Source: an uncultured bacterium (GTDB lineage Bacteria > Zhuqueibacterota > QNDG01 > CAYUAG01). Taken from it: a stretch of DNA of 64,000 nt. This document shows, one piece after another, positions 10,877-43,150 of this stretch (position 1 is the stretch's first letter; each line of letters begins with the position of its first letter). Both the position numbers and the translations under genes were made by a program. The stretch spans positions 2,346 through 66,345 of the forward strand of contig CAYUAG010000003.1 in NCBI GenBank assembly GCA_964442615.1. The letters are read 5' to 3'. Under the pieces are notes generated by a model. It worked only from the letters and a program-made list of their open reading frames with translations. It did no database searches and was not told where the DNA came from.

Positions 10877-13309
10877 CTAAAATGACATCCCAATTAAATT
10901 CAAGTTAAATCCAAAATAGTTATTATTGTTTATAAGATTTTGGGTTCCGTCAAATCTAACAGAGAGAAATTTGAATTTCATCACCAGAGATATACCCAAT
11001 TCATGGTGAAATTCATTTTTATAACTTGGTGCATAATTTTGCTTAATACGGTCTAATCTTTCTTCATTGATCCATGTCCTTCCCGAAGCGCCCTGAACTA
11101 TAAACTCATATTTATTTCTAGAAAAATATTTTAATCCTACAATTTCAAAGGGAATGGATTTGAAGTTATGCTCCCAGAAAATTCCGATTTTTTTTTCACC
11201 TTCAAGCGGTTTATTAATCAAGGTTTTAAAAATTCCAAAGGATGAATAGGAAAAAATACTACCATCGATGATGGAAAATCTCTGTAAAGGCATAGATCCT
11301 GTGTACGTAGATGCTTCAATTCGAACTCTGAGATAATTATGATCCGATCTTCGTTTAAAAAATGTGGTTAGTCTATAATCACATAAAAAATTACATTGAG
11401 TAAAATCGAAGTCACTATTTAAATATTTTGGTGAACTGTGTTCGATCTGCAACTCAATTTTGTCAGTCCTATCACCAAAAATTTTTTCCATCTCAGGTTC
11501 ATTATAAGCTTGGTGGTAAGCAAATTGAAATTTTACTGAATTCAACCTGCCGTCATCAATTGCAGGATTTTCTCTTTGTGCATATTCTTTACTCAGAATA
11601 TTCCAGTTTGATTTTTTTATAATTGATGAATTGTTTTCACTATTAAACACAAATGAAACTTCACTTCTTATATTTTCAAAGCTGTATATTAAACCGGTAG
11701 TAATTCTTTTATTTTGATAATAATCAAAATAATCATACCTTCCCAGAAGTGGTAAAAAACTTGTGACTAATTGTGAATAGTGCATTGAACCATACCTGGT
11801 ATCGGTTTTATCATAAAAACCGGCAAAAATACATTTATTTTCATCATCTTTATGTATCAAGTATTTCAGTTGGGTCTGGTAATACAATCTTTTGGAATAG
11901 GTTTGATAACCTCCGACTGTACTTAAAAGATAGTGATCATGAAATCGATAATTATATTTTATTCCCAGGTTGAGACCCTCAACTCGATTATACCATCCCT
12001 GGAAACCCAAATCAGTACTGGATTGTATGGGTGTATAACTGCCGTGTTCACTTAAGCCAATCTCAAGATCTTTTTCTTTACTCTTAAAATAGGATGCCAG
12101 AATTCCTGTGGGCGGGAATGATTTAATCAAAGTCATAGTGGTGTCAGGATTGGTATGAGCTTCAAGTTCTCTTGAGGTTAAAGGCACTTTTTCAAAGTTC
12201 TCAAAGGCACGGTCATTATTATAAATTTTTAAGGAACTTTGAGAAGATGTGGTTATCGTATCCAATCTAACCATCTTACTGGTAACATCTACATTAATCT
12301 CATAATTGGAAAGCCTGGAAATCTTACTGAATATTGCTTTTGGAAAAGCAATCAATCCCATATCAACTTCAAAAACTTCTTTAACCCGGGAATCAATAGG
12401 CAGCCAGAATTCCTTGCCAAAATTATTGAATTGCTGCTGGTAATTTCCCTGAAAATATTTCAGCATGGTAAAAAAATTCATATTCCCGCTATTTTTCAAA
12501 TCGACTTCAATCATGGCAAAATCCTCATCAAGCACGGAAATTCTACCTGAAAATAGCGGCTGTAATCTGGTTTTGGGTTTGACCAGGATATCAAAAACTG
12601 TCTTGTTATTCAGATTCCTTTCTCCTCTTAATTCAAAATTATAATATGTAAAGGCATCAGGATGCGTCGGCCCCACGAATGTATGATTGATTAACTGAAT
12701 GTTGTCATGGTAAAAGTTATAAATATTTTTAGAGCCAACATTCAACTCGGTCAAATAGCTCATCCGTTTGGAACTTTTTTTGGCGATGAACTCCTCACGC
12801 GAGCCCATTTCCGAATCCCAATAAAGTTTTGATACCGACTCTGACAAGGAAACAATAGATGTATCATTTTCGACTTTTGTTCGGGTATAGGCTTTAGCTG
12901 TGTATGATTTTAATTTTTTTTGCCATTTGATTTTATTGGCGATTACTTTTCTCATGATCCTTATGGCCGGATCTTCTCGGCTCCCGGTAATTACAATGCT
13001 TTTCAATTCCAGGACAATCGGATTTAATGAAATATTCAGTTTGTTTTCACCTAAATTCTCTAATTTGATTTTTCTGGTCTCATAGCCAATATAATAAACG
13101 ATAACCATTGAGGGAATGGTTGGAATTTCCAGCGAATAATGTCCATCCTGGTTGGAGGTTGTGCCGATATAGGTGTCTTCTATATAAATATTAGCATAAG
13201 TTAGCGGTTCGTTTGTATCAGCATCTTTGATTATTCCATGAATGCTATTTTGTGAAAAGACATTATTTACAGAAAAAAAAATTATTATGCAAAAATAAAT
13301 GTTCTTCAT
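10877..13309 (-). CDS. Outer-membrane-associated protein with an N-terminal carboxypeptidase-regulatory-like (CarboxypepD_reg) domain, DUF5686-like
   Basis: Signal peptide, then GIIKDADTNEPLTYANIYIEDTYIGTTSNQDGHYSLEIP (CarboxypepD_reg consensus). The remainder of the 810 aa is rich in beta-strand-like Y/F/N/G segments, as in Bacteroidota DUF5686 proteins. Confidence 0.45.
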   Translation of the reverse strand: MKNIYFCIIIFFSVNNVFSQNSIHGIIKDADTNEPLTYANIYIEDTYIGTTSNQDGHYSLEIPTIPSMVIVYYIGYETRKIKLENLGENKLNISLNPIVLELKSIVITGSREDPAIRIMRKVIANKIKWQKKLKSYTAKAYTRTKVENDTSIVSLSESVSKLYWDSEMGSREEFIAKKSSKRMSYLTELNVGSKNIYNFYHDNIQLINHTFVGPTHPDAFTYYNFELRGERNLNNKTVFDILVKPKTRLQPLFSGRISVLDEDFAMIEVDLKNSGNMNFFTMLKYFQGNYQQQFNNFGKEFWLPIDSRVKEVFEVDMGLIAFPKAIFSKISRLSNYEINVDVTSKMVRLDTITTSSQSSLKIYNNDRAFENFEKVPLTSRELEAHTNPDTTMTLIKSFPPTGILASYFKSKEKDLEIGLSEHGSYTPIQSSTDLGFQGWYNRVEGLNLGIKYNYRFHDHYLLSTVGGYQTYSKRLYYQTQLKYLIHKDDENKCIFAGFYDKTDTRYGSMHYSQLVTSFLPLLGRYDYFDYYQNKRITTGLIYSFENIRSEVSFVFNSENNSSIIKKSNWNILSKEYAQRENPAIDDGRLNSVKFQFAYHQAYNEPEMEKIFGDRTDKIELQIEHSSPKYLNSDFDFTQCNFLCDYRLTTFFKRRSDHNYLRVRIEASTYTGSMPLQRFSIIDGSIFSYSSFGIFKTLINKPLEGEKKIGIFWEHNFKSIPFEIVGLKYFSRNKYEFIVQGASGRTWINEERLDRIKQNYAPSYKNEFHHELGISLVMKFKFLSVRFDGTQNLINNNNYFGFNLNLIGMSF

Positions 13310-13326: not shown

Positions 13327-16300
13327 TTATTCTGATACAGCTACTTTTTTCATATTATTATCCCGATTTCGATCAATTAGAATCAGGTAAGGATCAATCC
13401 CTGCCTGAACAGGTTGTTTATCCACAATAATGTCAAATTGTTGTGTATTTTTAGTGAATTTATGTTTTTTCAAATAAAGCTCTTCCTCATCTTTTCCCAA
13501 TACGCCGATATAAATATAATCATTTAAGGGAATTTCAGTCTGTTTACCATTGCTATCAGCACGAAATTTATGAGAGGATACTTTAAAACTTACTCGATAT
13601 TTTCCTGTATGTAATGCTCTATAGTTTGCTGTGAGGACCTGGTTTTCATGCAAAGTGATTGTTTCAAATAAATCAGTGATAATATACTGAAGACTATCCG
13701 GTGTATTTTCCCTGAAAGCTGAGATTATATCCAAGGAGTTTATAAAGGAATTTTCTCTACGACCATATTTATCAATAATACATTTCAATGCTTTATTAAC
13801 ATTCTCTTCTCCGATATAATTCTGCAATGCATACATTGCAACCATACTTTTGGCATAAGTTATGTAATATCTCATAAATTGGCGTACAAGTGTCCGTTCC
13901 CCTTCTGTATCGTTTTTGCGCCCCCGCAAGTAATCATCCATTACTTCGCCCAACTGTTTTCTTGCCATTGCTTTGCCGTACTCCTTTTCCAGACACATAA
14001 TCCAGACATATTGGCAAATTGCTTCGGTCGTCAATTCACAACCTTCTGCAAAAGATGGAGCAACGATATAGGGCCACCAGTTATGGGTAATTTCATGGGC
14101 TGCAATGCCAAACATCTGATCATTAGCTTCAGGATCTTCAATATTATCTATGAAAACCGCACTTTCAGTCCAGACTACCATGGAAGGTTGGGAACGGGCA
14201 CCAAAAGCATAATAGTTTGGGATTTCGGCAATGCGGAATGCAGAATAGGGATATTGACAAAAATTGCTGGAACAATAATTCAACGAACTTTTCATTCCTT
14301 TAATAAGGCGCTGAATATTCCAGTGGTGTTTCTTGTAATAGTACACTTCCACTAAAACCCCATCCTGTTCATCCGTCGCCACTTCGTATTCTCCGGAAAC
14401 AATCGAAATTTCATTTTTCATGGGGATATCTGTTTGATAATGAAAATAATTTCTATCCTGATCCTTCCATTGTTTCATGAGATTTCCATTGGAAACAATA
14501 GTTTGCGAACTATCGGTGCTTATAATCGCATCATAAGTCGTATTTGAAAAATTCCACTTATTCTCTTCCTTTTCCAGAGGGGGATATTCAGGACGTTCCG
14601 GTAAACCGTATTTCTTTCTTTCAAAGTTCTTTTCGATTTCGATCAACCGATTATAGCCGATGCCAGGGAAATATTCATTGGGTCCCCATCCGCCGCTTAA
14701 AAATAAACAAGTTCCGTTGTAAGCCAGTTCATTCTTTGGATTACTCTCTGTAAACCCGATTGTCCGAGCCTCAAGATCGAAGGTAAGAACAATCTCATTT
14801 CCGGGATTCAAAGGCTTTCCCAACCTGTAAATACGAAAACCATATTCTTTATCTTGATAGGTGAGGTCAGCAGGCTGAGAGAATTCAAGCTGATTGATTT
14901 TAGTGATCTTCCAGTCCGGTAAATTGACAAACAGGGTATCAATCGCTTTATTTGTTTTATTCCTCAGGGAATAATATCCTTTGATTAAAACATTACGTTG
15001 TTTGGGGAAAATATCCACATTCAATTTAATATGTTCAATTTTCGGTTGAACTGTTAGCAAAAATTTCGAATATTTTTTTTCATAATCAGCTTGCATCTGG
15101 ATAGAATGATCCTCTGACCGGTATTGGTTCAATATGTACTTGTTGTAATAAATGGTTGAACCGGTCACTAAAAAAAGAATTACCAGTATAGCTAAGGCTA
15201 TTTTGTGAGAATGCCGGAGATTTTGAAAGGCAATCCTGATCCTGTATTTCAACCTGGTTTCTTCATTCCTGCGCCAGGTCAGGGAGGAAATAATTCCTAA
15301 AATAAAAGCAAATATCAGCCAATACAGGGTATACCATAATATAATTGGTCCATAATGGCCGTATCCATTCATATTGGAATAAATAATTGATGGTATATAA
15401 CCATATCTTAATAAAATATTATCATATCCGGAGACCATAAATATCAGAATGTCTGCTATGAAATAGAGTGCACAAATAAAAAATCCCAGGTATTTGTTTT
15501 TAACAAGATTTTGAATAAGCAAAATCATAATCCCGATGTGCCAATAATTAATAAGATGGATACCAAAGACTTGCTTCAGATAAAGACCTAATTCAATATC
15601 TGTCCAGCGCAGAATAACAACCTGGGTAAAAATTCCTGTTGCCATAATCATAATCACAAAAAAAGTAATAATGCTCATTAAGGCAAAAAGTTTGGAAAGA
15701 TAGTTCAGCCATTCAGGTGTGGGCAAAGTATCATAAAATTGATGCGAATTATTATCTCTCTCCCGCCAGACAATCACCCCGCCGAAAAAAATGATCATCG
15801 GGATAATATACACCCATATATAATCCATTTGCTGTAAAAAATATGATGTGAGAGGATAGCGATTATCATCACCAAAACCAACATTTGCATAAAAATTGAC
15901 AAAAATATTAGCCATAGCCATTATTGTGAGAATGATAAATGCGGGGTGAAATACAATTCGTTTAAACTCGCGACCAACGAGGTGGAAGCATTTTTTAAGT
16001 TGAAGGGTAAAAGAATTATCGATTGTAGATGTTTTTATTGGTTCTGAACAAGTGGTTGATTTTAATTCAAAATCGTTTGAATTGGAAATAACTCTATTTT
16101 TTTTACTCTCAAGGATGGAGATGAATTTGAATTTATTCCAGGTAAAATAAATAATAGCAAAACTAACAGTCAACCAGATTCCCCGGTTTAATAACAACCA
16201 ACCGGATAGAGGCATGGTGTTTGTGTTAATTTCAGAAACCGTCCAGTATTTTGTTAACACACCAAGCGATGAAATGGCAAAAGGATCTGCTAATATCCTG

Positions 16301-16911
16301 ATGGTATCATTATCCAGAAAGGTAAGACCCAATGAAATGAATCCATAAACAATCAGCAAACCAATTCCTGCTATGTAGGTCATCACCATTTTACGAGTAA
16401 TAGTTGCCAGAGAGAAAAAAATGCTGCCAATCAGAAAAAGATTGGGAATAAGAATAAAAATTATAGGGAGCATAAATCCAGATAGACTGAAGGAACCATA
16501 ATATTTCGGATCAATCACCAGGCAGCCAATTATTAAACCAATGATAGCTCCAGAAAAGATCATCAGGTTGGCAAAGAGCCCACCCAGAAAACGTCCGCCC
16601 AGATAAGCAGCTTTACTCATGGGGATGGTGAAAAAAAAGTCATGAATTTTGGCACGGAAATCTTTGGTAACTGCTCTTCCCATCATCATAATGGTGATTA
16701 AAATACCATACACACTTAAAAGTGCAAAAAATCTGGCGATGATTAAAGGTGCATTGTGCCATTCTCTACCAATCGGTATTGCGACTACTGTATTTGGATC
16801 GATATTGGAAGCAAAAATGTAAGTGTATATTAAATAAATGGTTGTAAAAATATAAAAAGAAATGTTTTTCAAATTTTTCTTTAATTCTGTTATGAATATT
16901 ACTTTAAACAT
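13327..16911 (-). CDS. ABC-2-type permease (about 13 predicted TM segments, duplicated 6-TM ABC-2 module) fused to a C-terminal M1-like (gluzincin) zinc peptidase domain
   Basis: 1194 aa. The first ~560 aa hold two sets of about six hydrophobic helices plus a 13th TM (KIALAILVILFLVTGSTIYY) just before the soluble domain. The C-terminal ~600 aa carry HEITHNWW...E (HEXXH plus a downstream Glu, the M1/aminopeptidase-N-like zincin signature). Paralog of 21291-24989. Sits immediately downstream of an ABC ATPase. Confidence 0.7.
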   Translation of the reverse strand: MFKVIFITELKKNLKNISFYIFTTIYLIYTYIFASNIDPNTVVAIPIGREWHNAPLIIARFFALLSVYGILITIMMMGRAVTKDFRAKIHDFFFTIPMSKAAYLGGRFLGGLFANLMIFSGAIIGLIIGCLVIDPKYYGSFSLSGFMLPIIFILIPNLFLIGSIFFSLATITRKMVMTYIAGIGLLIVYGFISLGLTFLDNDTIRILADPFAISSLGVLTKYWTVSEINTNTMPLSGWLLLNRGIWLTVSFAIIYFTWNKFKFISILESKKNRVISNSNDFELKSTTCSEPIKTSTIDNSFTLQLKKCFHLVGREFKRIVFHPAFIILTIMAMANIFVNFYANVGFGDDNRYPLTSYFLQQMDYIWVYIIPMIIFFGGVIVWRERDNNSHQFYDTLPTPEWLNYLSKLFALMSIITFFVIMIMATGIFTQVVILRWTDIELGLYLKQVFGIHLINYWHIGIMILLIQNLVKNKYLGFFICALYFIADILIFMVSGYDNILLRYGYIPSIIYSNMNGYGHYGPIILWYTLYWLIFAFILGIISSLTWRRNEETRLKYRIRIAFQNLRHSHKIALAILVILFLVTGSTIYYNKYILNQYRSEDHSIQMQADYEKKYSKFLLTVQPKIEHIKLNVDIFPKQRNVLIKGYYSLRNKTNKAIDTLFVNLPDWKITKINQLEFSQPADLTYQDKEYGFRIYRLGKPLNPGNEIVLTFDLEARTIGFTESNPKNELAYNGTCLFLSGGWGPNEYFPGIGYNRLIEIEKNFERKKYGLPERPEYPPLEKEENKWNFSNTTYDAIISTDSSQTIVSNGNLMKQWKDQDRNYFHYQTDIPMKNEISIVSGEYEVATDEQDGVLVEVYYYKKHHWNIQRLIKGMKSSLNYCSSNFCQYPYSAFRIAEIPNYYAFGARSQPSMVVWTESAVFIDNIEDPEANDQMFGIAAHEITHNWWPYIVAPSFAEGCELTTEAICQYVWIMCLEKEYGKAMARKQLGEVMDDYLRGRKNDTEGERTLVRQFMRYYITYAKSMVAMYALQNYIGEENVNKALKCIIDKYGRRENSFINSLDIISAFRENTPDSLQYIITDLFETITLHENQVLTANYRALHTGKYRVSFKVSSHKFRADSNGKQTEIPLNDYIYIGVLGKDEEELYLKKHKFTKNTQQFDIIVDKQPVQAGIDPYLILIDRNRDNNMKKVAVSE

Positions 16912-17002
16912 TTACATACTCCATGGATATTACTAATGATTTGTTGTCTGTTGTTCCTTAAATAAATTTTCTCCTGTCAAAGAATGATAGATTTATGGAT
17001 AA

Positions 17003-17869
17003 TTAGTTATTCAAATGATAAAAATAAACATCCTCTAAGGTCGCAGTAACAGATGAAAATCCATTTACCGGCTTAGTTTCACGATAAGCACGAATAAATG
17101 TTTTTCCTGCAAAAAGCCGGGTAGAAATAATATTGTATTTTTCCTGGTATTCACCCAAGTCGGTTTTTTTGATTTCCCTTTCCCAGATTTTTCCATCCAA
17201 TTGAGAAATCGCATCAAGTGTATTTTCTGTTAAAACAATCTTGCCCCTGTTAATTATTGCCATATTTGTACAAAGATCGCTGACATCATCTACAATATGG
17301 GTTGAAAGTATGACAACAATGTTTTCACCAATTTCACTCAACAGGTTATGAAAACGAACCCGTTCGGCAGGATCCAAACCGGCAGTGGGTTCATCAACAA
17401 TAATTAATTGGGGATTACCCAGTAATGCCTGGGCAATGCCAAAACGCTGTCTCATGCCATTTGAAAAAGTACCCAATTTTTGTTTTCTTTCTTTCCAGAG
17501 GTTTACTCGTTTCAAGAGCTGTTCTACTTTTAATTTGCGATCCTTTTTATCTCGTATTCCCTTTAATAAAGTGAAGTGCTCCAGCAGGTTATATGCATTC
17601 TCTTTAGGATAGAAACCAAAATCCTGTGGTAAATAACCAAGTATTTTTTTGACTTCGTTTTTCTGTTTTAAAACATCTATCTGGCCCAAACTAATTTTTC
17701 CTGAATCTGCTTCCTGCAGGGTAGCTATTGTTCTCATCAGTGTTGATTTTCCCGCTCCATTAGGCCCCAATAAACCGAACAGTCCGTTTGGGATTTCAAG
17801 TGATACATCATCCAAAGCTACTACACCATTGGCATAGGTTTTGGATAGATTTTTTATTGACAGTTTCAT
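17003..17869 (-). CDS. ABC transporter ATP-binding protein (partner of the permease-M1 fusion), with a conserved C-terminal extension of about 80 aa
   Basis: Walker A GPNGAGKST, signature FSNGMRQR, Walker B LIIVDEPTAGLD. About 70% identical to the ATPase at 20400. Confidence 0.85.
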   Translation of the reverse strand: MKLSIKNLSKTYANGVVALDDVSLEIPNGLFGLLGPNGAGKSTLMRTIATLQEADSGKISLGQIDVLKQKNEVKKILGYLPQDFGFYPKENAYNLLEHFTLLKGIRDKKDRKLKVEQLLKRVNLWKERKQKLGTFSNGMRQRFGIAQALLGNPQLIIVDEPTAGLDPAERVRFHNLLSEIGENIVVILSTHIVDDVSDLCTNMAIINRGKIVLTENTLDAISQLDGKIWEREIKKTDLGEYQEKYNIISTRLFAGKTFIRAYRETKPVNGFSSVTATLEDVYFYHLNN

Positions 17870-18073
17870 TATGCAATTACTCCTCTATTTTTTCATATTT
17901 TTTGAGTAGAACAAATACTCATTGTTTTAAATAAAATATGTCTTTTAAAACTCCAAAAAGCAAAAAAGAATGACAAACGAGTGCCGTACAATGATAAATG
18001 CTTTCTTTTACCTGGTGAACGACATAGGTCAAAAAACAGTTGTATTTAGTAATTAAAAGTGTATATTTGAAAT

Positions 18074-19087
18074 ATGAAATTCACCTTGAAGAACAAACTT
18101 TTGATGAAGCTGTGGGAAAACCAGCTTTTTCGTCATATATTCTATTGGATCTGTGGATTTATCTTTTTAATTTTAAATGTTATTATATGGGATAGTATTA
18201 CTAATGCTTATCTAATAGGATTAATAGTTATTGTACCAGGAATTATCCCGGTTTATCTCCATTTCTATTTACATAAACGATTCTTTAAACGAAGACAATA
18301 CCTGCCTTATATTTTTTTCATTGTCCTTATCCTCATTGGTTCTCAATTCTTTACGGAAGGCTTAATTCGTCTTATAGAAAAAGGTGAGGATACTCACACC
18401 TCCGGAGCAGCCACTGCTTTGTTTTATATTATACTTACAACTACTATAAAATATTATAAAAAGGGCGTAAAACAACAAGTTCGCCTGCAGGAAGCGGAAG
18501 CCAAACAACTTCAGACTGAACTGGTATTACTTAAATCCCAGGTTAATCCCCATTTCTTCTTCAACACTCTAAACAATCTGTATGCACTCAGTCTGGATCA
18601 ATCGAAACGGGTTCCGGAAGTGATTCTTAAGATATCTGATTTGATGCGTTACATACTGGAGAGTTCTAACAATAAGAAGGTTTTATTAACTCAGGAAGTC
18701 AACTTTGTACAGAATTATTTGTCATTGGAGAAACTTCGATTAAGTGTCAATAGTGATATTTCTTTTAATCTATCTGGTAACCCGGATGGAAAAACCATAG
18801 CTCCCATGCTTTTCATTCCCTTTATTGAAAACAGCTTTAAACATGGTATCTCTGCCTCAACCAGGAGCAATTATGTGCATATTGATTTGAAAATTCAAGA
18901 AAACGATCTATTCTTTTCGGTTGAGAACAATAAGCGGGAAAACTATAAAACAAAAGATCAATCATCATCAAAGTCAGGAATAATAAATGTAACCAGAAGA
19001 TTGCAACTATTGTATCCTGATAAACATAAACTGGATATTGAAGAAAATAAAAAATCTTACAGGGTTGATTTAAAAATCGAATTATGA
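18074..19087 (+). CDS. LytS/YehU-type sensor histidine kinase (His_kinase PF06580-like), membrane-embedded with no obvious extracytoplasmic sensor domain
   Basis: About 4 N-terminal TM helices, then the His-box region QVNPHFFFNTLNNLYAL characteristic of LytS-family kinases, then an ATPase-like C-terminus. Stop overlaps the start of the downstream LytTR regulator (ATGA). Confidence 0.75.
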   Translation: MKFTLKNKLLMKLWENQLFRHIFYWICGFIFLILNVIIWDSITNAYLIGLIVIVPGIIPVYLHFYLHKRFFKRRQYLPYIFFIVLILIGSQFFTEGLIRLIEKGEDTHTSGAATALFYIILTTTIKYYKKGVKQQVRLQEAEAKQLQTELVLLKSQVNPHFFFNTLNNLYALSLDQSKRVPEVILKISDLMRYILESSNNKKVLLTQEVNFVQNYLSLEKLRLSVNSDISFNLSGNPDGKTIAPMLFIPFIENSFKHGISASTRSNYVHIDLKIQENDLFFSVENNKRENYKTKDQSSSKSGIINVTRRLQLLYPDKHKLDIEENKKSYRVDLKIEL

Positions 19088-19803
19088 AAATGAAGTGTAT
19101 TGTCGTGGATGATGAGCCTTTGGCACAGAGAGTGCTGGAGAAATATATCTCGTCATTATCGTCATTGGAATTATTGAAAAAATGTAATAACGCTTTAGAG
19201 GCAATGGCGTTCTTGCATGAAAATAAAGTCGATATTATGTTTTTGGATATCAAAATGCCGGAGCTTACCGGCATCGAGTTTCTGAAAACCCTGACTCATC
19301 CTCCACAGATAATTATTACAACCGCTTATTCCCAGTATGCGGTGCAAAGTTATGAATTCTCGGTTATTGATTATTTACTTAAGCCCTTTTCATTTGAAAG
19401 GTTTTTAAAGGCAGTCAACAAGGTAATAAATAAAAAAGTGGAAAAAAACAGCACTTTGTCTGTAAATCCCGAACCTGTTCAAGATTTTATTTTTTTAAAA
19501 GCGGATAAAATCGATCATAAAATATTCTATTCCCAGATAAAATATATCGAAGGATGCGGAAATTATATAAAAATCTTTACTGATAATAAAATGCTTATGG
19601 TAGCCGAAACAATGACTGAAGTTGAAAAAAATCTGCCTAGGGAATTATTCATTAGAACCCATAAGTCCTTTATTGTTTCAATCAAAAAAATCGATCAGAT
19701 AGAAGGGAATATGATTCGTATTGGTGATAAAACTATTCCGATAGGAAATTATTACCGATTGTGTGTAAATACAATTCTTGATAAATATAATCTTAAAAAA
19801 TAA
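19084..19803 (+). CDS. LytTR-family two-component response regulator (REC + LytTR DNA-binding domain)
   Basis: N-terminal REC (IVVDDEPLAQ...DIMFLDIKMPELTG) with the phospho-acceptor Asp context. C-terminal LytTR domain (FIRTHKSFIVSIKKI). Confidence 0.8.
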   Translation: MKMKCIVVDDEPLAQRVLEKYISSLSSLELLKKCNNALEAMAFLHENKVDIMFLDIKMPELTGIEFLKTLTHPPQIIITTAYSQYAVQSYEFSVIDYLLKPFSFERFLKAVNKVINKKVEKNSTLSVNPEPVQDFIFLKADKIDHKIFYSQIKYIEGCGNYIKIFTDNKMLMVAETMTEVEKNLPRELFIRTHKSFIVSIKKIDQIEGNMIRIGDKTIPIGNYYRLCVNTILDKYNLKK

Positions 19804-20068
19804 AATGTCAACAGCTTGTTTTTTCCCTCCAATTTTTCAAGTTTTACTATTTTCAGTAATATCCTATACAGAATTGTAACTTTATCAGAATTCGCCCCGA
19901 ATCAGTAAAAGAATATCTCTTGACCATTGCTTATAAGGGATTTTTAGAGCTCCGGTGGAGAAGAATGTGAGGTTTGTCTGAAAAATGGTTTTACTGATTC
20001 ACCATCTAAACCTGATAAAATATTCAAATCGGAACTTATACTCCCAAGAGTTAAGACTGTACATCAGA

Positions 20069-20150
20069 GGTTACCAGATATTGATTGAGCAGCTTTTATG
20101 TTACCGGTTCTGTATGAACTTACCTTAGGCTAAAATTGCTAGTAACCTCC
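20069..20150. promoter_or_regulatory. Cluster of imperfect GTTACC-type direct repeats, a candidate LytTR operator upstream of the second ABC operon
   Basis: GGTTACCAG (20069), TGTTACCGG (20099) and CTTACCTTA (20119), plus an inverted copy GTAACCTCC (20142). The last two direct copies are about 20-21 bp apart, the spacing typical of LytTR direct-repeat sites. Found by eye only. Confidence 0.2.
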
Positions 20151-20399
20151 TACAGTCCTTTATGACGGCTGTGGTAAAGATACATCGCTTTAGGAAAAAA
20201 TTAATCAGTTTGTTATTTAAAATTGATATTTTTGGTTTGACCTTTTTTTCTTAAATAAATGCAATTCTTTTTCTAACAGAAAACATTGTAACTTTTCGTT
20301 TGCTTATGCATAGTATGATTAGAAAAACAATACAGCCAATTTTCTGATTAGGTCTGTGTTCGTATAGTATCACATTAACTGATAATAAAAGGAGTAGAT

Positions 20400-21269
20400 A
20401 TGCATTTAGAAATTCAAGATCTTTCAAAGGTATATACTAATGGAGTGGTTGCTTTAAAAAATGTATCTCTGAACATCCAGACTGGAATGTTCGGATTATT
20501 AGGGCCAAATGGTGCTGGAAAGACCACTTTGATGAGAATAATTGTTACCCTGTTGGAAGCTGATAATGGAACTATTCAACTTGGAGACATCAATATCCTT
20601 AAAGAAAAAATCAGATTGAAAAAAGTATTGAGTTATTTGCCACAGGAGTTTGGATTTTATCCAAAAGCAAGAACCTATAACCTGCTTGATCATTTTGCCA
20701 TGCTGAAAGGAATTAGGGAAAGAAAAATACGTAAACAAGTTGTGGAACATCTTTTAAAGCGAGTGAATCTCTGGAATGCCAGAAAGCAAAGATTGGGTAC
20801 GTATTCGGGTGGTATGAAACAGCGTTTTGGTATTGCATTGACTTTACTTGGGAATCCTCAATTAATTATTGTTGATGAACCTACAGCCGGCCTGGATCCT
20901 GCAGAGCGGAATCGTTTTTATAATGTATTAAGCGAGATTGGTGAAAATATTGTGGTGATACTTTCTACTCATATTGTGGAAGATGTTAGTGTCTTATGCA
21001 CCCATATGGCTATTATCAACAATGGTGAAATTCTATTAAAAGAAAGGCCAATTGCTGTCCTTTCAGCTATAAAAGGGAAACTGTGGGAAAAGGAAATAGA
21101 AAAAGTTGAATTATCCTACTATGAGGAAAAATATAAAGTCATTTCAACAAGATTATTTTCAGGAAAAACATTCATTCATATTTATTGTGAAGATAATCCA
21201 GCCAATGGATTCTCCCTCTGTCAGGCAACTTTAGAAGACGCCTATTTTTATCATTTAAACAAGAATTAA
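20400..21269 (+). CDS. ABC transporter ATP-binding protein, paralog of 17003-17869
   Basis: Walker A GPNGAGKTT, signature YSGGMKQR, Walker B LIIVDEPTAGLD. Same C-terminal extension as the first ATPase (ATLEDAYFYHLN). Confidence 0.85.
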   Translation: MHLEIQDLSKVYTNGVVALKNVSLNIQTGMFGLLGPNGAGKTTLMRIIVTLLEADNGTIQLGDINILKEKIRLKKVLSYLPQEFGFYPKARTYNLLDHFAMLKGIRERKIRKQVVEHLLKRVNLWNARKQRLGTYSGGMKQRFGIALTLLGNPQLIIVDEPTAGLDPAERNRFYNVLSEIGENIVVILSTHIVEDVSVLCTHMAIINNGEILLKERPIAVLSAIKGKLWEKEIEKVELSYYEEKYKVISTRLFSGKTFIHIYCEDNPANGFSLCQATLEDAYFYHLNKN

Positions 21270-21290
21270 TCCCATGAAAGGATATCCAAG

Positions 21291-24200
21291 ATGTTCCTTA
21301 CTATTTATTTTCATGAAATTAGAGAAAACTGTAAGAGTATTTCCTTTTTTATATTTGCTGTTGTCCTGTTTGGTCTTGCCTATTTAAATGCTTCCAATAC
21401 CAGCTCCAGTATGGTGGTTATTATCCAACATGGGCAATCGTTGCATAATGCTCCATTATTCATTGCTCGGTTTATGGCAATTATGTCTGTTTTATCGCTG
21501 TTATTTACAATTAGAATTGTTGGAAGGTCAGTTGTTAAAGATTTTCAAGCTAATATGCATGATTTTTATTTTACCATGCCGATAAGAAAGGTAGTTTATC
21601 TTATGGGAAGATTTTCTGCAGGTATTACTACTAATACAATTATCTTTATAGGAGCTTTATTGGGAATTATTATTGGATGTTCAGTTATTGAGGCGAGATA
21701 CATCGGGACACATCAACTGTCTGCCTATTTGTTTACCTTATTTATCATTCTTATTCCTAACCTGGTTATTATAGGCAGTGTTTTTTTCTCTATAGCGACC
21801 CTTAGTCGTAAAATGATAACTACATACATTATTGGCGTTGCTTTTGTAATGATCTATTTTATTGTCACCCTTGGTATTGCTGATACAAGTCATGAAAATG
21901 TTAAGGTTCTTGCTGATCCTTTTGGAATAGGTTTTTTAGAAGTGGTATCAAAATATTGGACAATTACTGAAATCAACCACAATCTGATTCCCCTTAATAA
22001 GCTTATCATTATGAATCGAATCATCTGGCTTGCAATCAGTATGGGAATTTTTTTCTTTACTTGGAGCAGATTTAAATTTGTCTCTGTATTAGAGACAAAG
22101 GGGGTGAGAAACAATAAGATAAAATGCAGTATTATTTTACTCTTAATAAAAACAAAAAATATTTTTAAAAAATATGGAAGTTATTTGTTCTCAACTCCTA
22201 AAGAAAAATTAATTTCAATGGATAAGAAATCTTCAGAATCCAAAATGGTTACAGACTACAGTCATCTACCAGAGTCTGTAATTATTGATTCGTTTATCAT
22301 TCAGCTACAGAAATGTTTTCGTCTTATGGTTGTGGAGTTTAAGAATATTGTTTTTCATCCTGCCTTCATCCTTATTACTATAGTAGCCTTGCTTCAAATT
22401 TATATCAATTTTACCAGTCACGATGTAATGGAAAGTGTTACATATCCGCTTACATCAATATACCTGCAGCATGTAAAAAATATCGACATATTTCTTATAT
22501 TAATCACCTTGGTTTTTAGCGGGATGGTTGTATGGAGAGAAAGAGATTATCAATCGAATGAGCTGTATGATGTGCTTGCTTTACCTGATTGGATGGTACA
22601 TTTCTCCAAACTTTTTTCAATCTTAGCCATGCAATTATGTGTCTTAATGCTCTGTATCTTTCTAGGGATTTTTACACAGGTGGTTATTTATGGGTATACC
22701 AACATTGAATTGAATCTTTATGTAAAATCGCTGATTGGTATTCAGGTATTACGTTATTTTTATCTGGCAGTACTGTTTATCTTTGTACAAAACCTTGCCA
22801 ACAATAAATATATTGGTTATTTAGTTTGTGTCTCATTAATAATGATAGGCGTTTTTGTCCCTCAATGTATTGAGTCTGATATAAGCTTATTTCAATATGG
22901 TAGTCTTCCAGTTTATATTTATTCAAATCTCAATGGATATGGTCATTTTGTAACTGTCCTGATCTGGTATCAAATCTATTGGTTCTGTCTGGCATTTATT
23001 ATTGTGATAGTTTCAAATATTCTTTGGCGCAGAAGTAAGGAAACTAGGCTGAAATTCAGAATTAAAAATGCAGTGAATAATTTCAACAAAAAATATGCAT
23101 TAACATTATTTATTTTAACTATTTTATGGTTACTGGTAGGTTGTTATATCTATTATAATAATCACATCCTTAATAAATACCTTACTGAAAACAAGCAAAA
23201 ATCAAAACTGGCAACCTATGAAAAAAAGTATAAGCAATATCAGAATTCTCCTCACCCAAGTATCACCCATGTTAATCTTGAGGTAGAGTTATATCCAGAA
23301 GATCGAGATGTATTTATTAAAGGTTTATATAGGCTACAAAATAAAACCCTACAAAAAATTAACCATATTCATATTGGTTTGTCTGATAGAAAAATCTCCA
23401 GGATACATAAGTTTGCATTTTCAGCGGAGACAGAAGTTGTATTAGAAGATAAAGAGCATTGGTTTTTTATATATCATCTTAAAGAACCTTTATTACCTGG
23501 TGCAGAATTAGAAATTGATTTCGATTTTGATATTCTTACCAATAGCTTTTCCATAAACAATCCTAAAAATGAATTAGCACATAACGGTATGGTTATTACA
23601 AATTTTCCTCTGCTACCACCTGAATATTTACCCCAGATTGGCTATAATCAATATTTAGAGTTAAGTAATCAATATGATAGAGAACTATACGGTTTACCGA
23701 AACGTTATCAAATTGTTTCTTTTGATGACAGTATTGAGTATAATACAACAATATTTCGTGATCTTGTGAGCTATGAAGCAGTCATCAGTACAAACAAACC
23801 TCAGATAGCTGTGACAAATGGAGAACTGGTAAAATCATGGATAGATAACAACAGGAATTATTTCCACTATAAAACCGATTCTCAAATGAATAATGCATTG
23901 GTTATTCACTCTGGAGAGTATCAATTAAAGAAGGAAACATATAAAGGCTTACTTGTTACAGTTTATTACAATAAAAATCATGCTTACAATATTCAGCGAA
24001 TAATGGATGGCATTAAGTATGCTTATGATTATTGTTCACTGAATTACAGCCCATATACTTACAAAGATTTAAGAGTGGTGGAAGTACCAAATTGCTGGGT
24101 TTTTTTACGAGGTGGGGTGCTGTCATTACCTGCTCTTTTTTCATGGAGTGAAGATGCGGGTTTTATTGATAACCTGGAAAGGGATCACGCTCCTGATAAT

Positions 24201-24989
24201 GTTTTCCCAATTGCTGCACATGAAATGGCGCATCAGTGGTGGGCCCATACAGTCAGACCCGCCTCTGTTCAAGGAGCTGAATTTGTGGTTGAGACAATGG
24301 CCATGTGGGTGCAGATCATGTGCATGCAGAAGGAACAGGGATTGAAGAAAACACAGAAATACTTGAAACATGAAATGGTTGATTATTTACGATTCAGGAG
24401 TGGTGAGATGAATGCGGAACAGCCTTTAGTTTATTCAGAAGGACAAGGATATGTAAGCTATCAAAAGGGCGTGGTGGCTATGTATGCTTTGCAGGATTAT
24501 ATTGGAGAAGATGTCGTGAATCTAGCCCTAAAAAGTATTGTAAAAAAATATGGATTTAAGAATGCTCCTTATCCAACAAGCTTAAATTTGATTAAATTCT
24601 TCAGATCCGTAACACCTGATAGTCTACAATATGTTATTACAGATTTATTCGAAACCATTACACTATACGAGAATAAAGCAGAATCTGCGGCTTATACAAA
24701 ATTGAGTAACGGTAAATTCAAGCTAAGTTTAACCATATCAAGTAAAAAATTAAGATCTGACGGAATGGGATATCAGACTGAAATACCAGTAAATGATTAT
24801 ATGAGTATAGGTGTTTTTGGTGATAATAATGAAGAGTTATACTTGAAAAAACACAAAATAAATAAAAACCAAATGACCTTTGAGATAATAGTGGATAAAA
24901 AACCAGTTAGAGCAGGCATTGATCCAAACATAATCTTGATTGATAGAAATAGAGAAAATAATATCACGACCGTAGAAAAGATTGAATAA
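21291..24989 (+). CDS. ABC-2-type permease fused to a C-terminal M1-like zinc peptidase domain, paralog of 13327-16911
   Basis: 1232 aa. Same architecture with a 13th TM (KYALTLFILTILWLLVGCYIYY) and HEMAHQWW...E zincin motif. Carries a ~40 aa insertion in the inter-module linker relative to the first copy. Confidence 0.7.
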   Translation: MFLTIYFHEIRENCKSISFFIFAVVLFGLAYLNASNTSSSMVVIIQHGQSLHNAPLFIARFMAIMSVLSLLFTIRIVGRSVVKDFQANMHDFYFTMPIRKVVYLMGRFSAGITTNTIIFIGALLGIIIGCSVIEARYIGTHQLSAYLFTLFIILIPNLVIIGSVFFSIATLSRKMITTYIIGVAFVMIYFIVTLGIADTSHENVKVLADPFGIGFLEVVSKYWTITEINHNLIPLNKLIIMNRIIWLAISMGIFFFTWSRFKFVSVLETKGVRNNKIKCSIILLLIKTKNIFKKYGSYLFSTPKEKLISMDKKSSESKMVTDYSHLPESVIIDSFIIQLQKCFRLMVVEFKNIVFHPAFILITIVALLQIYINFTSHDVMESVTYPLTSIYLQHVKNIDIFLILITLVFSGMVVWRERDYQSNELYDVLALPDWMVHFSKLFSILAMQLCVLMLCIFLGIFTQVVIYGYTNIELNLYVKSLIGIQVLRYFYLAVLFIFVQNLANNKYIGYLVCVSLIMIGVFVPQCIESDISLFQYGSLPVYIYSNLNGYGHFVTVLIWYQIYWFCLAFIIVIVSNILWRRSKETRLKFRIKNAVNNFNKKYALTLFILTILWLLVGCYIYYNNHILNKYLTENKQKSKLATYEKKYKQYQNSPHPSITHVNLEVELYPEDRDVFIKGLYRLQNKTLQKINHIHIGLSDRKISRIHKFAFSAETEVVLEDKEHWFFIYHLKEPLLPGAELEIDFDFDILTNSFSINNPKNELAHNGMVITNFPLLPPEYLPQIGYNQYLELSNQYDRELYGLPKRYQIVSFDDSIEYNTTIFRDLVSYEAVISTNKPQIAVTNGELVKSWIDNNRNYFHYKTDSQMNNALVIHSGEYQLKKETYKGLLVTVYYNKNHAYNIQRIMDGIKYAYDYCSLNYSPYTYKDLRVVEVPNCWVFLRGGVLSLPALFSWSEDAGFIDNLERDHAPDNVFPIAAHEMAHQWWAHTVRPASVQGAEFVVETMAMWVQIMCMQKEQGLKKTQKYLKHEMVDYLRFRSGEMNAEQPLVYSEGQGYVSYQKGVVAMYALQDYIGEDVVNLALKSIVKKYGFKNAPYPTSLNLIKFFRSVTPDSLQYVITDLFETITLYENKAESAAYTKLSNGKFKLSLTISSKKLRSDGMGYQTEIPVNDYMSIGVFGDNNEELYLKKHKINKNQMTFEIIVDKKPVRAGIDPNIILIDRNRENNITTVEKIE

Positions 24990-25062
24990 TTTTATTTTTT
25001 GTGACCTATATGTTTGTTGGATTTTGATGAGATTTATAGATAAACTGATTGTAAAAATTTTT

Positions 25063-25112
25063 AGACGGGATTAACAGGATATATAGTTTTATTTATTCTG
25101 TTAATCTCGTCT
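25063..25112. repeat. 15-bp inverted repeat (one mismatch) with a 20-nt spacer between convergent genes
   Basis: AGACGGGATTAACAG (25063-25077) ... CTGTTAATCTCGTCT (25098-25112). Lies in the gap between 24989 (+) and 25176 (-). No adjacent U-run, so it is not a canonical terminator. Confidence 0.3.
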
Positions 25113-25175
25113 AAATAATAGGATTCTTTATAATTACATCTGGAATGGAGTTTATATTTCGTTTTGGTTTGCTGG

Positions 25176-30667: not shown

Positions 30668-31443
30668 TACTTATCATCCTCACCTGTGATACTTTGGGAG
30701 AATGCTTTGGCAAGCTCAAGCATATCTTCTGTATGGATTAAGCGGCTGAAAACTCCTTCCAGAGAAGAACGTTTTGTCATAGATTTTAGTTCATCAACAG
30801 AACCATCTGCAACAATTTTTCCTTCTGAAATGATGATAACTCTGTCACACAGATGTTCAACCACTTCCAGGATATGTGAACAATAGAAAATAGTTTTTCC
30901 TTCATTTGCCAGATTTCGCAGCAATTGTTTTAGCATTAATGCGGTATTAGCGTCAAGTCCGGTTAAAGGTTCATCCAAAAATATTACTTGGGGATTATGA
31001 ATTAAAGCTGCAGATATAACCACCTTTTGTTTCATTCCTTTTGAAAATTCATTCATTCTTTTATGAGTGTATTTTTTTAAAGTAAAGAATTCAATAAATT
31101 TTTTAATTCTTTTTTCTATCATTTCGTCACTCATATGGTAAAGTCTGCCTACAAATTGAAGATATTCAAAAGGAGTAAGACTTTTGTATAGAGCTCCAGA
31201 CTCAGGTACATATCCGATACGTCTTTTTACTTCCGTTTTATTTTGAATAATATCATAATTACAAATTGACGCTGTACCTGCAGAAGGTGGAAGTATACCT
31301 GTGAGCATTTTGACTGTGGTTGTTTTGCCAGCACCATTGGGACCAAGGTAACCGCATATTTGTCCTTGTGGAATTGTAAAGCTTATATTATCTACAGCAG
31401 TAAAATTTCCAAAGTGACGAGTAAGATTATAAAGTTGTATCAT
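30667..31443 (-). CDS. ABC transporter ATP-binding protein
   Basis: Walker A GPNGAGKTT, signature FSKGMKQK, Walker B VIFLDEPLTGLD, H-loop. Confidence 0.8.
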   Translation of the reverse strand: MIQLYNLTRHFGNFTAVDNISFTIPQGQICGYLGPNGAGKTTTVKMLTGILPPSAGTASICNYDIIQNKTEVKRRIGYVPESGALYKSLTPFEYLQFVGRLYHMSDEMIEKRIKKFIEFFTLKKYTHKRMNEFSKGMKQKVVISAALIHNPQVIFLDEPLTGLDANTALMLKQLLRNLANEGKTIFYCSHILEVVEHLCDRVIIISEGKIVADGSVDELKSMTKRSSLEGVFSRLIHTEDMLELAKAFSQSITGEDDK

Positions 31444-43147: not shown

Positions 43148-43150
43148 AAG

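Follow-up and report, generated by a model that had tools for sequence, protein, structure and literature searches.

The locus considered here raises the question of what an ABC transporter fused to a peptidase does next to a sensor kinase and a transcriptional regulator. It occupies positions 13327–24989 of a 64,000-nucleotide stretch of DNA from an uncultured bacterium (hereafter, the window), with the gene order fusA<ATPaseA< >HK>RR> >ATPaseB>fusB. The best explanation of the whole, with a probability of about 0.5, is that the region is an inducible envelope module for ATP-coupled peptide handling. The gene composition, the conservation of catalytic residues, the fold, the recurrent co-inherited linkage and a repeat motif are computational results; the function, with the topology, regulator binding, the substrate class and the coupling of ATP hydrolysis to proteolysis, is inferred.

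As described in the earlier note, two operons face away from a central kinase/regulator pair. Operon A, on the minus strand, contains the genes ATPaseA (17003–17869, 288 aa) and fusA (13327–16911, 1194 aa). The plus strand carries the gene HK, encoding a histidine kinase (18074–19087, 337 aa), the gene RR, encoding a response regulator (19084–19803, 239 aa), the start of which overlaps the HK stop by 4 nt, and operon B, namely, ATPaseB (20400–21269, 289 aa) and fusB (21291–24989, 1232 aa). The Pfam search proposed in the same note was run and found ABC_tran in both ATPases, His_kinase PF06580 (E-value 2.1e-23) in HK, Response_reg (2.5e-20) and LytTR (2.3e-15) in RR and, over the C-terminal third of fusA and of fusB, Peptidase_M1. 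PADLOC defence-system models gave zero matches for the fusion proteins, kinase and regulator, and only generic P-loop/ABC matches for the two ATPases. The arrangement is not an assembly artefact, since three independent metagenome contigs (L151, L152 and L084) match its junctions at 100% identity. The two ATPase genes also resemble each other as DNA, where they make up an inverted repeat of 804 nt, 71% complementary. A hairpin found by inverted-repeat search between the convergent fusB and a 227-aa ORF (25060–25115, no strand assigned; arms of 26 nt, 88% complementary, loop of 4 nt) could possibly end operon B as a bidirectional terminator.

Both fusion proteins consist of two 6-TM halves, a 13th TM helix (TM13, at about 567–594 in fusA) and an M1 domain of about 600 aa. 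This architecture, a duplicated 6-TM ABC-2 module with a 13th helix and an M1-like domain, had been proposed at first reading and is backed by hydropathy and by a confident AlphaFold model (pLDDT 87.9, pTM 0.82). The peptidase part of fusA is composed of a beta domain, the catalytic domain (H939, E940, H943, E963 and Y1019) and a C-terminal beta-sandwich; fusB has about 35 extra aa in the cytoplasmic linker between the halves. Matches to ABC2_membrane families were obtained for 22 and 18 of 37 homologs, and the permease has a 6-TM unit, an N-terminal interfacial helix, the type V fold and a separate ATPase, typical for ABC-2 (type V) permeases. In each fusion, two ABC-2 (type V) units with 12 TM helices in all form a double permease within one chain, which continues into TM13 and an M1-type zinc peptidase.

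The peptidase domain is predicted, from hydropathy, the positive-inside rule and fold analogy, to lie on the periplasmic side of the membrane. The density of K+R is 0.20 in the predicted inside loops versus 0.06 in the outside loops, with the N-terminus inside and the C-terminus outside after TM13, and in the type V fold the 6-TM permease halves end in the cytoplasm. The extracytoplasmic location suggested earlier is kept, as a prediction.

The HEXXH motif and the distal Glu are intact in both proteins (HEITH939–943 and E963 in fusA, HEMAH977–981 and E1001 in fusB). None of the residues H939, E940, H943, E963, E916 and Y1019 varies among 131 non-redundant homologs with 29–100% identity, which rules against a degenerate domain, named in the earlier note as a refuting outcome. 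Assignment to M1 is indicated by HEXXH with the distal Glu, at a spacing of X19, one residue beyond the canonical HEXXH-X18-E, as well as by the catalytic Tyr and the M1 fold, comprising an N-terminal beta domain and a thermolysin-like domain. Accordingly, an M1-type zinc peptidase with intact catalytic residues is predicted. The GXMEN Glu, which in M1 enzymes binds the free amino terminus of the substrate, is absent: in the phmmer alignment to puromycin-sensitive aminopeptidase, FGARSQ stands opposite AGAMEN, and among the 131 homologs this position is occupied by S (86), A (32), H (11) or E (1). Therefore, neither a particular type of peptidase activity, such as that of an aminopeptidase, nor activity as such can be assumed. 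The helical domain IV (ERAP1_C-like cap) was not found either; residues 1084–1190 of the model are all beta, and Pfam gave no match to a C-terminal helical domain.

ATPaseA and ATPaseB share 69% of amino acids, close to the 70% estimated beforehand, and both retain intact Walker A, signature, Walker B and H-loop motifs. By its sequence, ATPaseA is an ABC ATPase of the GldA/DrrA/PmtA-like class. The C-terminal extension, taken at first for an unusual one of about 80 aa, measures about 60 aa and is normal for this class, since the GldA, DrrA and PmtA models partly cover it. The description of the two operons as highly similar is true of the ATPases only, because the identity of fusA and fusB is 44%.

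The family of fusion proteins comprises 1537 clusters at 50% identity (E<=1e-30), and among the best 150 of these nearly all are collinear, with lengths of about 1190–1240 aa. Species representatives belong to at least five phyla, including Bacteroidota, Acidobacteriota, Gemmatimonadota, Pseudomonadota and Myxococcota. Where a locus extends far enough, the gene immediately upstream of the fusion encodes an ATPase in essentially all cases, and the family is widespread in many phyla as a bare two-gene operon of ATPase and fusion. Neither precursor nor biosynthetic genes recur beside the operon in 141 loci or occur in the window, and none of the genes nearby is a candidate for encoding a substrate. 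The earlier statement that no characterised system of such composition is known agrees with literature and database searches, which gave no characterised relative; the literature search found no paper on the permease–peptidase fusion family. TCDB family 3.A.1.145, 'Peptidase Fused Functionally Uncharacterized ABC2-2', is presumably the same fusion; to our knowledge it is a classification entry only, without regulation, topology, motif analysis or function, and a literature search for it found no paper.

The kinase has four TM helices in its first ~130 residues, the PF06580 dimerisation/H-box region (NPH160FFFN) and an ATPase domain. Pfam and hydropathy revealed no extracytoplasmic sensor domain, and the outside loops are only about 5 and 13 residues long, in line with the original reading of about four TM helices without an extracellular sensor. 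PF07694 (5TM-Lyt) and GAF were not matched; with four TM helices only and neither of these domains, HK is a member of the broad PF06580 family rather than an ortholog of LytS. The regulator is represented by a receiver domain (D55) and a LytTR DNA-binding domain; its nearest profile models are BtsR and LytR, for which it scores far under the cut-offs.

In an unbiased clustering of neighbours in 141 unique loci, the PF06580 kinase, with 20 loci, and the LytTR regulator, with 16, headed the list, and no other specific recurrent neighbours were found among these loci. The pair is present in 13 of 28 evaluable loci of the clade with at least 42% identity, 12 of them divergent, and in 5 of 71 loci of the 28–42% clade. 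The four-gene module was also found in a genome labelled Gemmatimonadota. Many top kinase homologs share contigs with fusion homologs, and at 46% identity or more the contig nearly always carries one. Kinase identity drops with fusion identity (Pearson 0.87); when ranked, the two are only weakly correlated (n=13; Spearman coefficient 0.48, p=0.10). A more distant kinase homolog adjoins an ABC permease of the MacB/FtsX type, and beside a related kinase at 44% identity a transporter gene is absent. In most of the family (about 80 of 99 evaluable loci), the 4 kb around the operon contain no two-component system; the kinase is therefore no general requirement of the transporter, and the regulator is an add-on in some lineages.

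Three direct repeats at 17970–18021 on the minus strand form a putative LytTR operator. They are 10 bp long, with a start-to-start distance of 21 bp, and point at ATPaseA, at -148, -127 and -106 from its ATG: CGTTCACCAG (18021–18012), CATTTATCAT (18000–17991) and CGTTTGTCAT (17979–17970). At least 12 loci (among them L001, L094, L106, L110, L115, L118, L119, L121, L122 and L083) carry, between the kinase and ATPase genes, 2–4 copies of the consensus CGTTyrTCAy (with T also allowed at the first position, [CT]GTT[TC][AG]TCA[CT]), all in one orientation and with 20–21 bp spacing. Strong pairs upstream of the ATPase are also present in L113, L117 and L129, the contigs of which end before the kinase position; among other, unlinked loci a pair was found in 2 of 97, both weak. 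With a position weight matrix built without the window sites, the best pair of the 64-kb window falls within the 204-bp target region. The score of this pair, 18.4, is unexceptional against shuffled 64-kb sequences (top scores of 19–21), so the weight lies with position, orientation, triple arrangement and conservation. The repeats are probably binding sites of the regulator.

Operon B has a different history. fusA is 52–57% identical to homologs in MAGs labelled as other phyla, closer than to fusB (44%), while fusB has its own orthologs in L109 (77%) and L114 (70%), both preceded by an ECF sigma/anti-sigma pair and not by a two-component system. A mirror-image duplication, as the layout had been called, is not borne out as an event: judged by these identities, operon B is an ancient paralog of operon A, not a recent copy. 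Upstream of ATPaseB, at 19890–20233 (plus strand), tblastn with intact L083, L109 and L114 sigma factors (E 1e-4 to 2e-11) recovered sigma-factor residues ~47–156, spread over three reading frames and interrupted by two in-frame stops; similarity is seen in the DNA as well. The intact sigma factors of the relatives were confirmed by Pfam, and the remnant is identical in the independent contigs L152 and L084. By sequence comparison, the segment is an ECF sigma pseudogene, and the anti-sigma gene is lost. The 20.0–20.4 kb region, regarded earlier as a promoter, is largely this decayed gene, and the repeat motif is absent from it. Control of operon B by the kinase/regulator pair is a conjecture, since no repeat pair was found upstream of this operon.

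The gene of an 810-aa protein (10877–13309, minus strand) starts 18 bp past the fusA stop. Pfam identified DUF5686 (5.5e-34) and a CarboxypepD_reg domain (CarbopepD_reg_2), and the protein combines a signal peptide with a C-terminus (...LIGMSF) that resembles those of outer-membrane barrels. Orthologs adjoin the module in the close relatives L083, L094 and L097 and in no other locus surveyed. The gene is likely accessory to, or co-transcribed with, operon A in its sub-clade.

Taken together, a cytoplasmic ATPase dimer would power the single-chain permease, and TM13 would display the uncapped M1-type peptidase, devoid of the GXMEN Glu, in the periplasm. The permease may take membrane-associated or periplasmic peptides, which the fused peptidase would destroy; candidate substrates are antimicrobial or other amphipathic peptides and cleaved signal peptides. 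The kinase would report the resulting state of the membrane or transporter. HK and RR are the presumed cognate regulators of operon A (ATPaseA–fusA, probably with the DUF5686 gene), the phosphorylated regulator would bind the 17970–18021 repeats in the divergent intergenic region and activate transcription, and the regulator probably switches on at least one of the flanking operons. Operon B would once have been under its own ECF sigma/anti-sigma switch, now a pseudogene. It follows HK and RR in the same direction, and no terminator is predicted between RR and operon B, so that its expression would be explained most simply by read-through or a residual promoter.

Other readings concern the regulator and the machine itself. 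PF06580/LytTR pairs are very common in Bacteroidota, related kinases are found in other contexts, and the pair is rare near distant members, which would fit a regulator of something else placed here by chance. This is highly improbable: the pair recurs in nearly half of the close loci and is divergent, as here, in all but one of these, no neighbour family recurs more often, the module is kept in a genome labelled as another phylum, and the repeats keep their position and orientation between loci. The survey thus bears out the earlier view that the linkage is not coincidental. In Bce-like flux sensing, as proposed in the earlier note, the kinase, unable to detect the stimulus by itself, would work in complex with the permease–peptidase and read out its activity, the transporter being both sensor and effector. 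The minimal outside loops, the co-inheritance of kinase/regulator and transporter genes over distant lineages, the close kinase homologs nearly always found with a fusion homolog and the distant one by a MacB/FtsX-type permease are consistent with it. It is less likely than not, since any regulator–target pair would show co-inheritance, divergence is only weakly correlated by rank, such a kinase is missing from most of the family, and a related kinase stands without a transporter neighbour.

With regard to the machine, the ABC-2 part may move nothing across the membrane, ATP hydrolysis driving conformational cycles of the fused periplasmic peptidase (opening and closing, unfolding of substrates or feeding), as NosDFY and FtsEX drive periplasmic partners by mechanotransmission. 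If true, periplasmic or membrane proteins would be degraded at the expense of energy in a compartment without ATP. The covalent fusion and the pTM of 0.82 suggest a fixed inter-domain geometry, and without the M1 cap larger substrates could reach the open groove; however, the next-best structural relatives, PmtD, Rv1217c and ABCG2, are true exporters, and no consistently encoded partner or substrate protein was found nearby in the 141 loci, so this reading is rather doubtful. Its fuller form, an ATP-powered periplasmic protease in which the ABC-2 part is a motor, not a pump, extracting or unfolding substrates or feeding them to the uncapped M1 domain for cleavage, with a LytTR or ECF envelope-stress switch in some lineages and possibly an outer-membrane DUF5686 partner, is unlikely. 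Export of a specific precursor peptide or lipopeptide with trimming outside, which would make the system an extracytoplasmic counterpart of peptidase-containing ABC transporters (PCATs) or of the M1-type leader peptidases used by class III lanthipeptides, is very unlikely. Foldseek matches include, at rank 43, the lanthipeptide M1 peptidase EryP, and the peptide exporter PmtD is structurally close to the permease, but precursor and biosynthetic genes neither recur in the loci nor occur in the window, and the family is a bare two-gene operon across many phyla.

Among known systems, BceRS–BceAB of Firmicutes also combines a membrane-only kinase with an adjacent ABC transporter with a large extracytoplasmic domain, and in both cases the regulator is expected to induce the transporter. 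BceB, with its 10 TM helices, is of the FtsX/MacB type (type VII) and carries a binding domain, permeases of Bce modules having a large extracellular domain between TM7 and TM8, whereas the window permease is a double ABC-2 (type V) one with a peptidase; Pfam gave no match to FtsX or MacB_PCD. Bce regulation involves an OmpR-type regulator and a HisKA kinase instead of LytTR and PF06580, and the host here is diderm and Bacteroidota-like. In NatK–NatR, a LytTR-family regulator and a small membrane kinase reportedly control an adjacent ABC-2-type ATPase and permease operon. NatB has no peptidase domain, the reported role of NatAB is Na+ extrusion in a monoderm, and we know of no relation of the NatR operator to the window repeats. 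The likeness of the window to NatK–NatR/NatAB of Bacillus subtilis (Ogura et al. 2007, as cited in PMC3498285) lies in a LytTR regulator and membrane kinase beside an ABC-2-type operon.

The nearest structural relative of the permease is NosY of NosDFY (PDB 7O0Y), although sequence similarity is not detectable. NosY is a 6-TM homodimer, its machine does not transport peptides, a point against the proposed peptide handling, and NosD is a separate beta-helix protein of copper-centre assembly, with no peptidase, in contrast to the single-chain permease with its fused peptidase. The phenol-soluble-modulin exporter PmtCD (PDB 6XJH) and Rv1217c–Rv1218c (PDB 8K1M) lack the 13th helix and a fused extracytoplasmic enzyme. 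Compared with ERAP1, PepN, LTA4H and the two-domain M1 enzyme of Deinococcus radiodurans (PDB 6A8Z), GXMEN is replaced by [F/G]-A-[Q/R]-[S/A/H]-[F/Q], the distal Glu is 20, not 19, positions past the second His, and a C-terminal beta-sandwich and the tether to a transporter are present. PCATs resemble the window fusions in that a peptidase is covalently joined to a peptide-handling ABC transporter; theirs is a cytoplasmic C39 cysteine peptidase at the N-terminus of a type IV exporter, to which the ATPase domains are fused, while the window proteins combine a C-terminal zinc peptidase, predicted to be extracytoplasmic, with a type V permease and a separate ATPase protein.

Six open reading frames of the module, all of which an earlier note on this DNA had described, were found at the same positions, and the description was confirmed by Pfam domains, ORF positions and motifs; the interpretation attached to it is supported in part. 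Operon A is represented by the gene ATPaseA (17003-17869, minus strand, 288 aa), encoding an ABC ATPase, and the gene fusA (13327-16911, minus strand, 1194 aa), encoding a fusion of a double ABC-2 permease, a thirteenth transmembrane helix (TM13) and an M1-type peptidase. Operon B contains the corresponding genes ATPaseB (20400-21269, plus strand, 289 aa) and fusB (21291-24989, plus strand, 1232 aa). Between them lie, on the plus strand, the genes of a sensor-less kinase with four transmembrane helices (18074-19087, 337 aa; Pfam His_kinase, PF06580), with H160 intact in the motif NPHFFFN, and of a regulator (19084-19803, 239 aa; Response_reg and LytTR) with D55 intact. The domain ABC_tran was found in both ATPases, in which Walker A, signature, Walker B and H-loop are intact, and Peptidase_M1 was matched in the C-terminal third of both fusion proteins. 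Amino acid identity is 69% between the ATPases and 44% between the fusion proteins; the two ATPase genes are also recognisable in the DNA as an inverted repeat of 804 nt, 71% complementary. Three independent metagenome contigs (L151, L152 and L084) match the gene junctions at 100% identity; therefore, the layout is not an assembly artefact. A PADLOC scan gave no specific match, and no Pfam match was found for the C-terminal ~76 aa of the ATPases. A near-perfect hairpin (25060-25115; 26-nt arms, 88% complementary, 4-nt loop) is located between fusB and a convergent 227-aa ORF, which is retained at 100% identity in contig L084.

The AlphaFold model of the fusion protein, built with 51 homologs, is confident (pLDDT 87.9, pTM 0.82). 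Its N-terminal part is predicted to consist of two units, each with an interfacial helix and six transmembrane helices, connected by a disordered cytoplasmic linker; these would be followed by a short cytoplasmic helix and TM13 (about 567-594), and then by a beta domain, a catalytic domain resembling thermolysin and a C-terminal beta-sandwich. With helix borders taken from the model, the density of lysine and arginine is 0.20 in the predicted inside loops versus 0.06 in the predicted outside loops, and the loop 545-566, directly N-terminal of TM13, is very basic. Since six-helix units of type V start and finish in the cytoplasm, the peptidase domain is predicted to be periplasmic. A PDB search with a profile of the membrane domain gave no match.

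The zinc-binding motifs are intact in both proteins, namely, HEITH (939-943) with E963 in fusA and HEMAH (977-981) with E1001 in fusB. The zincin motif is conserved throughout the family: residues H939, E940, H943, E963, E916, Y1019 and K1021 are invariant in 131 of 131 non-redundant homologs (29-100% identity), and the domain is not degenerate. The zinc site, the tyrosine and the fold of M1 enzymes are present, while the GXMEN motif and the cap domain are absent. In the alignment with puromycin-sensitive aminopeptidase, FGARSQ faces AGAMEN; family-wide, Ser, Ala or His occupies the position of the GXMEN glutamate, Glu being found there in 1 of 131 homologs, and the model lacks the helical cap that classical M1 enzymes have. 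The peptidase is not a textbook aminopeptidase.

With E<=1e-30, an exhaustive phmmer search revealed 1537 clusters (50% identity), and nearly all of the best 150 are collinear proteins with lengths of about 1190-1240 aa. Among species representatives, the family was found in Bacteroidota, Acidobacteriota, Gemmatimonadota, Myxococcales and Pseudomonadota, the last including Stenotrophomonas maltophilia, Massilia and Janthinobacterium; culturable genera with the family are Stenotrophomonas, Sphingobacterium, Tenacibaculum and Emticicia. In essentially every locus, an ABC ATPase gene is located directly 5' of the fusion gene. The family is large, constant in architecture and present in culturable genera, yet without known function. 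Source annotations are generic, namely, 'ABC-2 type transport system permease', 'M1 family aminopeptidase' or hypothetical protein. An exact sequence look-up of fusA returned no record, and a metagenome scan with a single protein query returned no relatives and was repeated with a clade alignment. Neither a full-text literature search for the permease-peptidase fusion nor one for LytTR-ABC modules in Bacteroidetes found a relevant paper. The TCDB family 'peptidase-fused functionally uncharacterized ABC2' presumably covers such fusions; a literature search on this name gave nothing.

The association of the transporter with the kinase/regulator pair was evaluated in unique loci with enough upstream sequence, a locus being counted as linked if a PF06580 kinase gene lies within 4 kb upstream. 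In the clade at least 42% identical to the proteins of the window, such a kinase was found in 13 of 28 loci, in 12 of them divergently oriented, and in the clade with 28-42% identity in 5 of 71 loci; the subclade labelled Zixibacteria/KSB1 never carries the pair. The LytTR system is linked to the transporter in part of the family. Kinase, regulator, ATPase and fusion genes recur in this divergent order in a genome labelled Gemmatimonadota; the pair is also carried by Emticicia sp. C21 (L075), a Marinoscillum MAG (L048) and a Cyclobacteriaceae MAG (L028), and is absent from the loci of Stenotrophomonas maltophilia (L079) and Sphingobacterium suaedae (L037). When all genes up to 5 kb away were clustered without bias across 141 loci, the kinase came out first (20 loci), together with the LytTR regulator (16 loci), and no other specific neighbour of the fusion recurred. 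In two pair-carrying loci, L119 (6441-7090) and L121 (1081-1751), the kinase-ATPase gap is about 650 bp, and an ORF of ~150 aa with an N-terminal signal-peptide-like stretch, missing from the window, is apparent there by eye.

For many of the top kinase homologs, the longest contig also carries a fusion homolog, and kinases at 44-45% identity adjoin a MacB/FtsX permease or no transporter at all. In contig L153 (7001-11426), genes of a 45%-identical kinase and a LytTR regulator are followed by the gene of a double MacB_PCD/FtsX permease, a hint that kinases of this subfamily have been combined more than once with ABC-type permeases that differ in fold. Kinase identity falls with fusion identity (n=13); strong co-evolution was rejected, since the Pearson coefficient of 0.87 is driven by one close pair and the Spearman coefficient of 0.48 is not significant (p=0.10). 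The correlation reads as co-inheritance and does not prove that the proteins are physically coupled.

In linked loci, the short regions between the divergent genes contain two to four direct repeats [CT]GTT[TC][AG]TCA[CT] with a spacing of 20-21 bp, all pointing toward the ATPase gene; the predicted operator is CGTTyrTCAy, repeated at 20-21 bp. LytTR regulators such as AgrA, ComE and BtsR bind sites with this arrangement. In the window, three putative operator repeats were found at 17970-18021, -106 to -148 from the start of ATPaseA and directed toward it. With a weight matrix built without these sites, the window repeat pair ranks first in the 64-kb window, within the 204-bp target and in the expected orientation; since its score lies inside the range of shuffled sequence, the evidence is position and conservation, not the score. 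Locus L083 was not used in building the matrix; a repeat triple is located there directly 5' of the first gene that lies downstream of the kinase. Strong repeat pairs were also found 5' of the ATPase gene in three truncated contigs (L113, L117 and L129), whose ends remove the site expected for the kinase gene; in the other unlinked loci repeat pairs, both weak, are present in only 2 of 97.

The mirror-image duplication suggested in the earlier note is contradicted as a recent local event by the pattern of identities and by the separate orthologs of fusB: fusA shares 52-57% identity with homologs from MAGs that bear the labels of other phyla, versus 44% with fusB, and fusB has its own orthologs in L109 (77%) and L114 (70%). 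In L109, L114, L083 and L108, the ATPase gene is directly preceded by genes of an ECF sigma factor and of an anti-sigma protein (101 aa, single TM). The apparent 597-bp gap between the regulator gene and ATPaseB is occupied by a decayed ECF sigma-factor gene (19890-20233, plus strand), retaining sigma residues ~47-156 in three reading frames, with at least two frameshifts and two in-frame stops. No anti-sigma remnant was detectable 5' of ATPaseB. An Rfam scan of the whole window gave no match, so no known riboswitch or sRNA accounts for the gap. The stretch from the regulator gene to ATPaseB lacks the repeat motif, and regulator sites upstream of operon B were rejected, as no motif pair and just two isolated weak sites were found. 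Promoter elements common to both upstream regions were likewise rejected, only AT-rich chance matches being present. A scan for sigma-70 promoters, with a model unsuited to Bacteroidota promoters, and for terminators remained at background level, with no terminator-like site between the regulator gene and ATPaseB. As the simplest reading, we conjecture that, with its own switch gone, operon B is now read from upstream or from a residual promoter.

Locus L083, the closest relative of operon A (82%), contains both circuits in the order regulator and kinase, repeats, then, divergently, sigma factor, anti-sigma, ATPase and fusion; at least three regulatory set-ups thus serve the fusion family. Two of them, the sensor-less membrane kinase and the ECF sigma/anti-sigma pair, are typical envelope-stress devices. 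The window represents a natural case of regulatory rewiring, with an ECF sigma gene decayed beside a two-component system.

Starting 18 bp after fusA, a gene for an 810-aa DUF5686/CarboxypepD_reg protein (10877-13309, minus strand) with a signal peptide and an outer-membrane-barrel-like C-terminus was found. Its orthologs accompany the module in L083 (14054-16486), L094 (6917-9349) and L097 (4455-6923), in the last between the kinase and ATPase genes, and in no other locus; these and the window are the four closest pair-carrying loci. On the basis of these four loci only, the protein may serve as a partner in the outer membrane within this sub-clade. Judging only from the genes of a T9SS sorting-domain protein, DUF5686 and LptD_2 around the module, the chromosome is probably diderm and Bacteroidota-like. 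Genes of a serine beta-lactamase-fold protein and an esterase/TPR protein are located a few kb from the module in the window (7753-8997 and 4155-5660, plus strand) and in L083 (1-1998); beta-lactamase-fold neighbours are also present in L110 and L085. The window further contains genes of an ABC ATPase (258 aa) and a 549-aa protein without Pfam match (29018-31443, minus strand) and of a MacB-type ATPase with a MacB_PCD/FtsX permease (42452-44557, plus strand). Adjoining genes on the minus strand encode a 466-aa GatD_N and asparaginase protein (38946-40346) and a 655-aa protein with a GatB_N/GatE-type catalytic domain (40324-42291); the pair resembles an archaeal-type GatDE Glu-tRNA(Gln) amidotransferase, and the rest of the context is bacterial (LptD, T9SS).

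The best-supported mechanism overall, with a probability of about 0.5, is that the module is an inducible envelope system feeding peptides to the fused peptidase. The ATPase dimer would power the double permease, which would hand membrane-associated or periplasmic peptides to the zinc peptidase, and operon A would be switched on by the LytTR regulator via the repeats. The composition and regulation proposed here are probable; the function is tentative. Chance adjacency of the pair and the transporter is highly improbable.

Resemblance to NosY and the uncapped active site favour a pure mechanotransmission machine acting as an ATP-powered periplasmic protease, which nevertheless appears rather unlikely. 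Bce-like flux sensing, a mode of signalling compatible with either peptide hand-over or mechanotransmission, is a somewhat doubtful option, and export-coupled maturation of a secreted peptide is improbable. A zinc peptidase fused to the outside of an ABC motor suggests a possible coupling of ATP to the extracytoplasmic destruction or processing of peptides. Such handling would bear on antimicrobial-peptide resistance, on envelope quality control and, because the domain lacks the aminopeptidase motif, on M1 enzymology.

An ABC transporter with a two-component system is the main known route of peptide-antibiotic sensing and resistance in Firmicutes, and we know of no comparable characterised system in Bacteroidota or other diderm phyla. 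The module of the window would work like the Firmicutes modules BceRS-AB, NatKR-NatAB and LnrJK-LMN, in which a transporter is combined with a two-component system, but is a member of none: its permease is of type V, not of the FtsX type, its regulator is of the LytTR type, and its extracytoplasmic domain is an enzyme.
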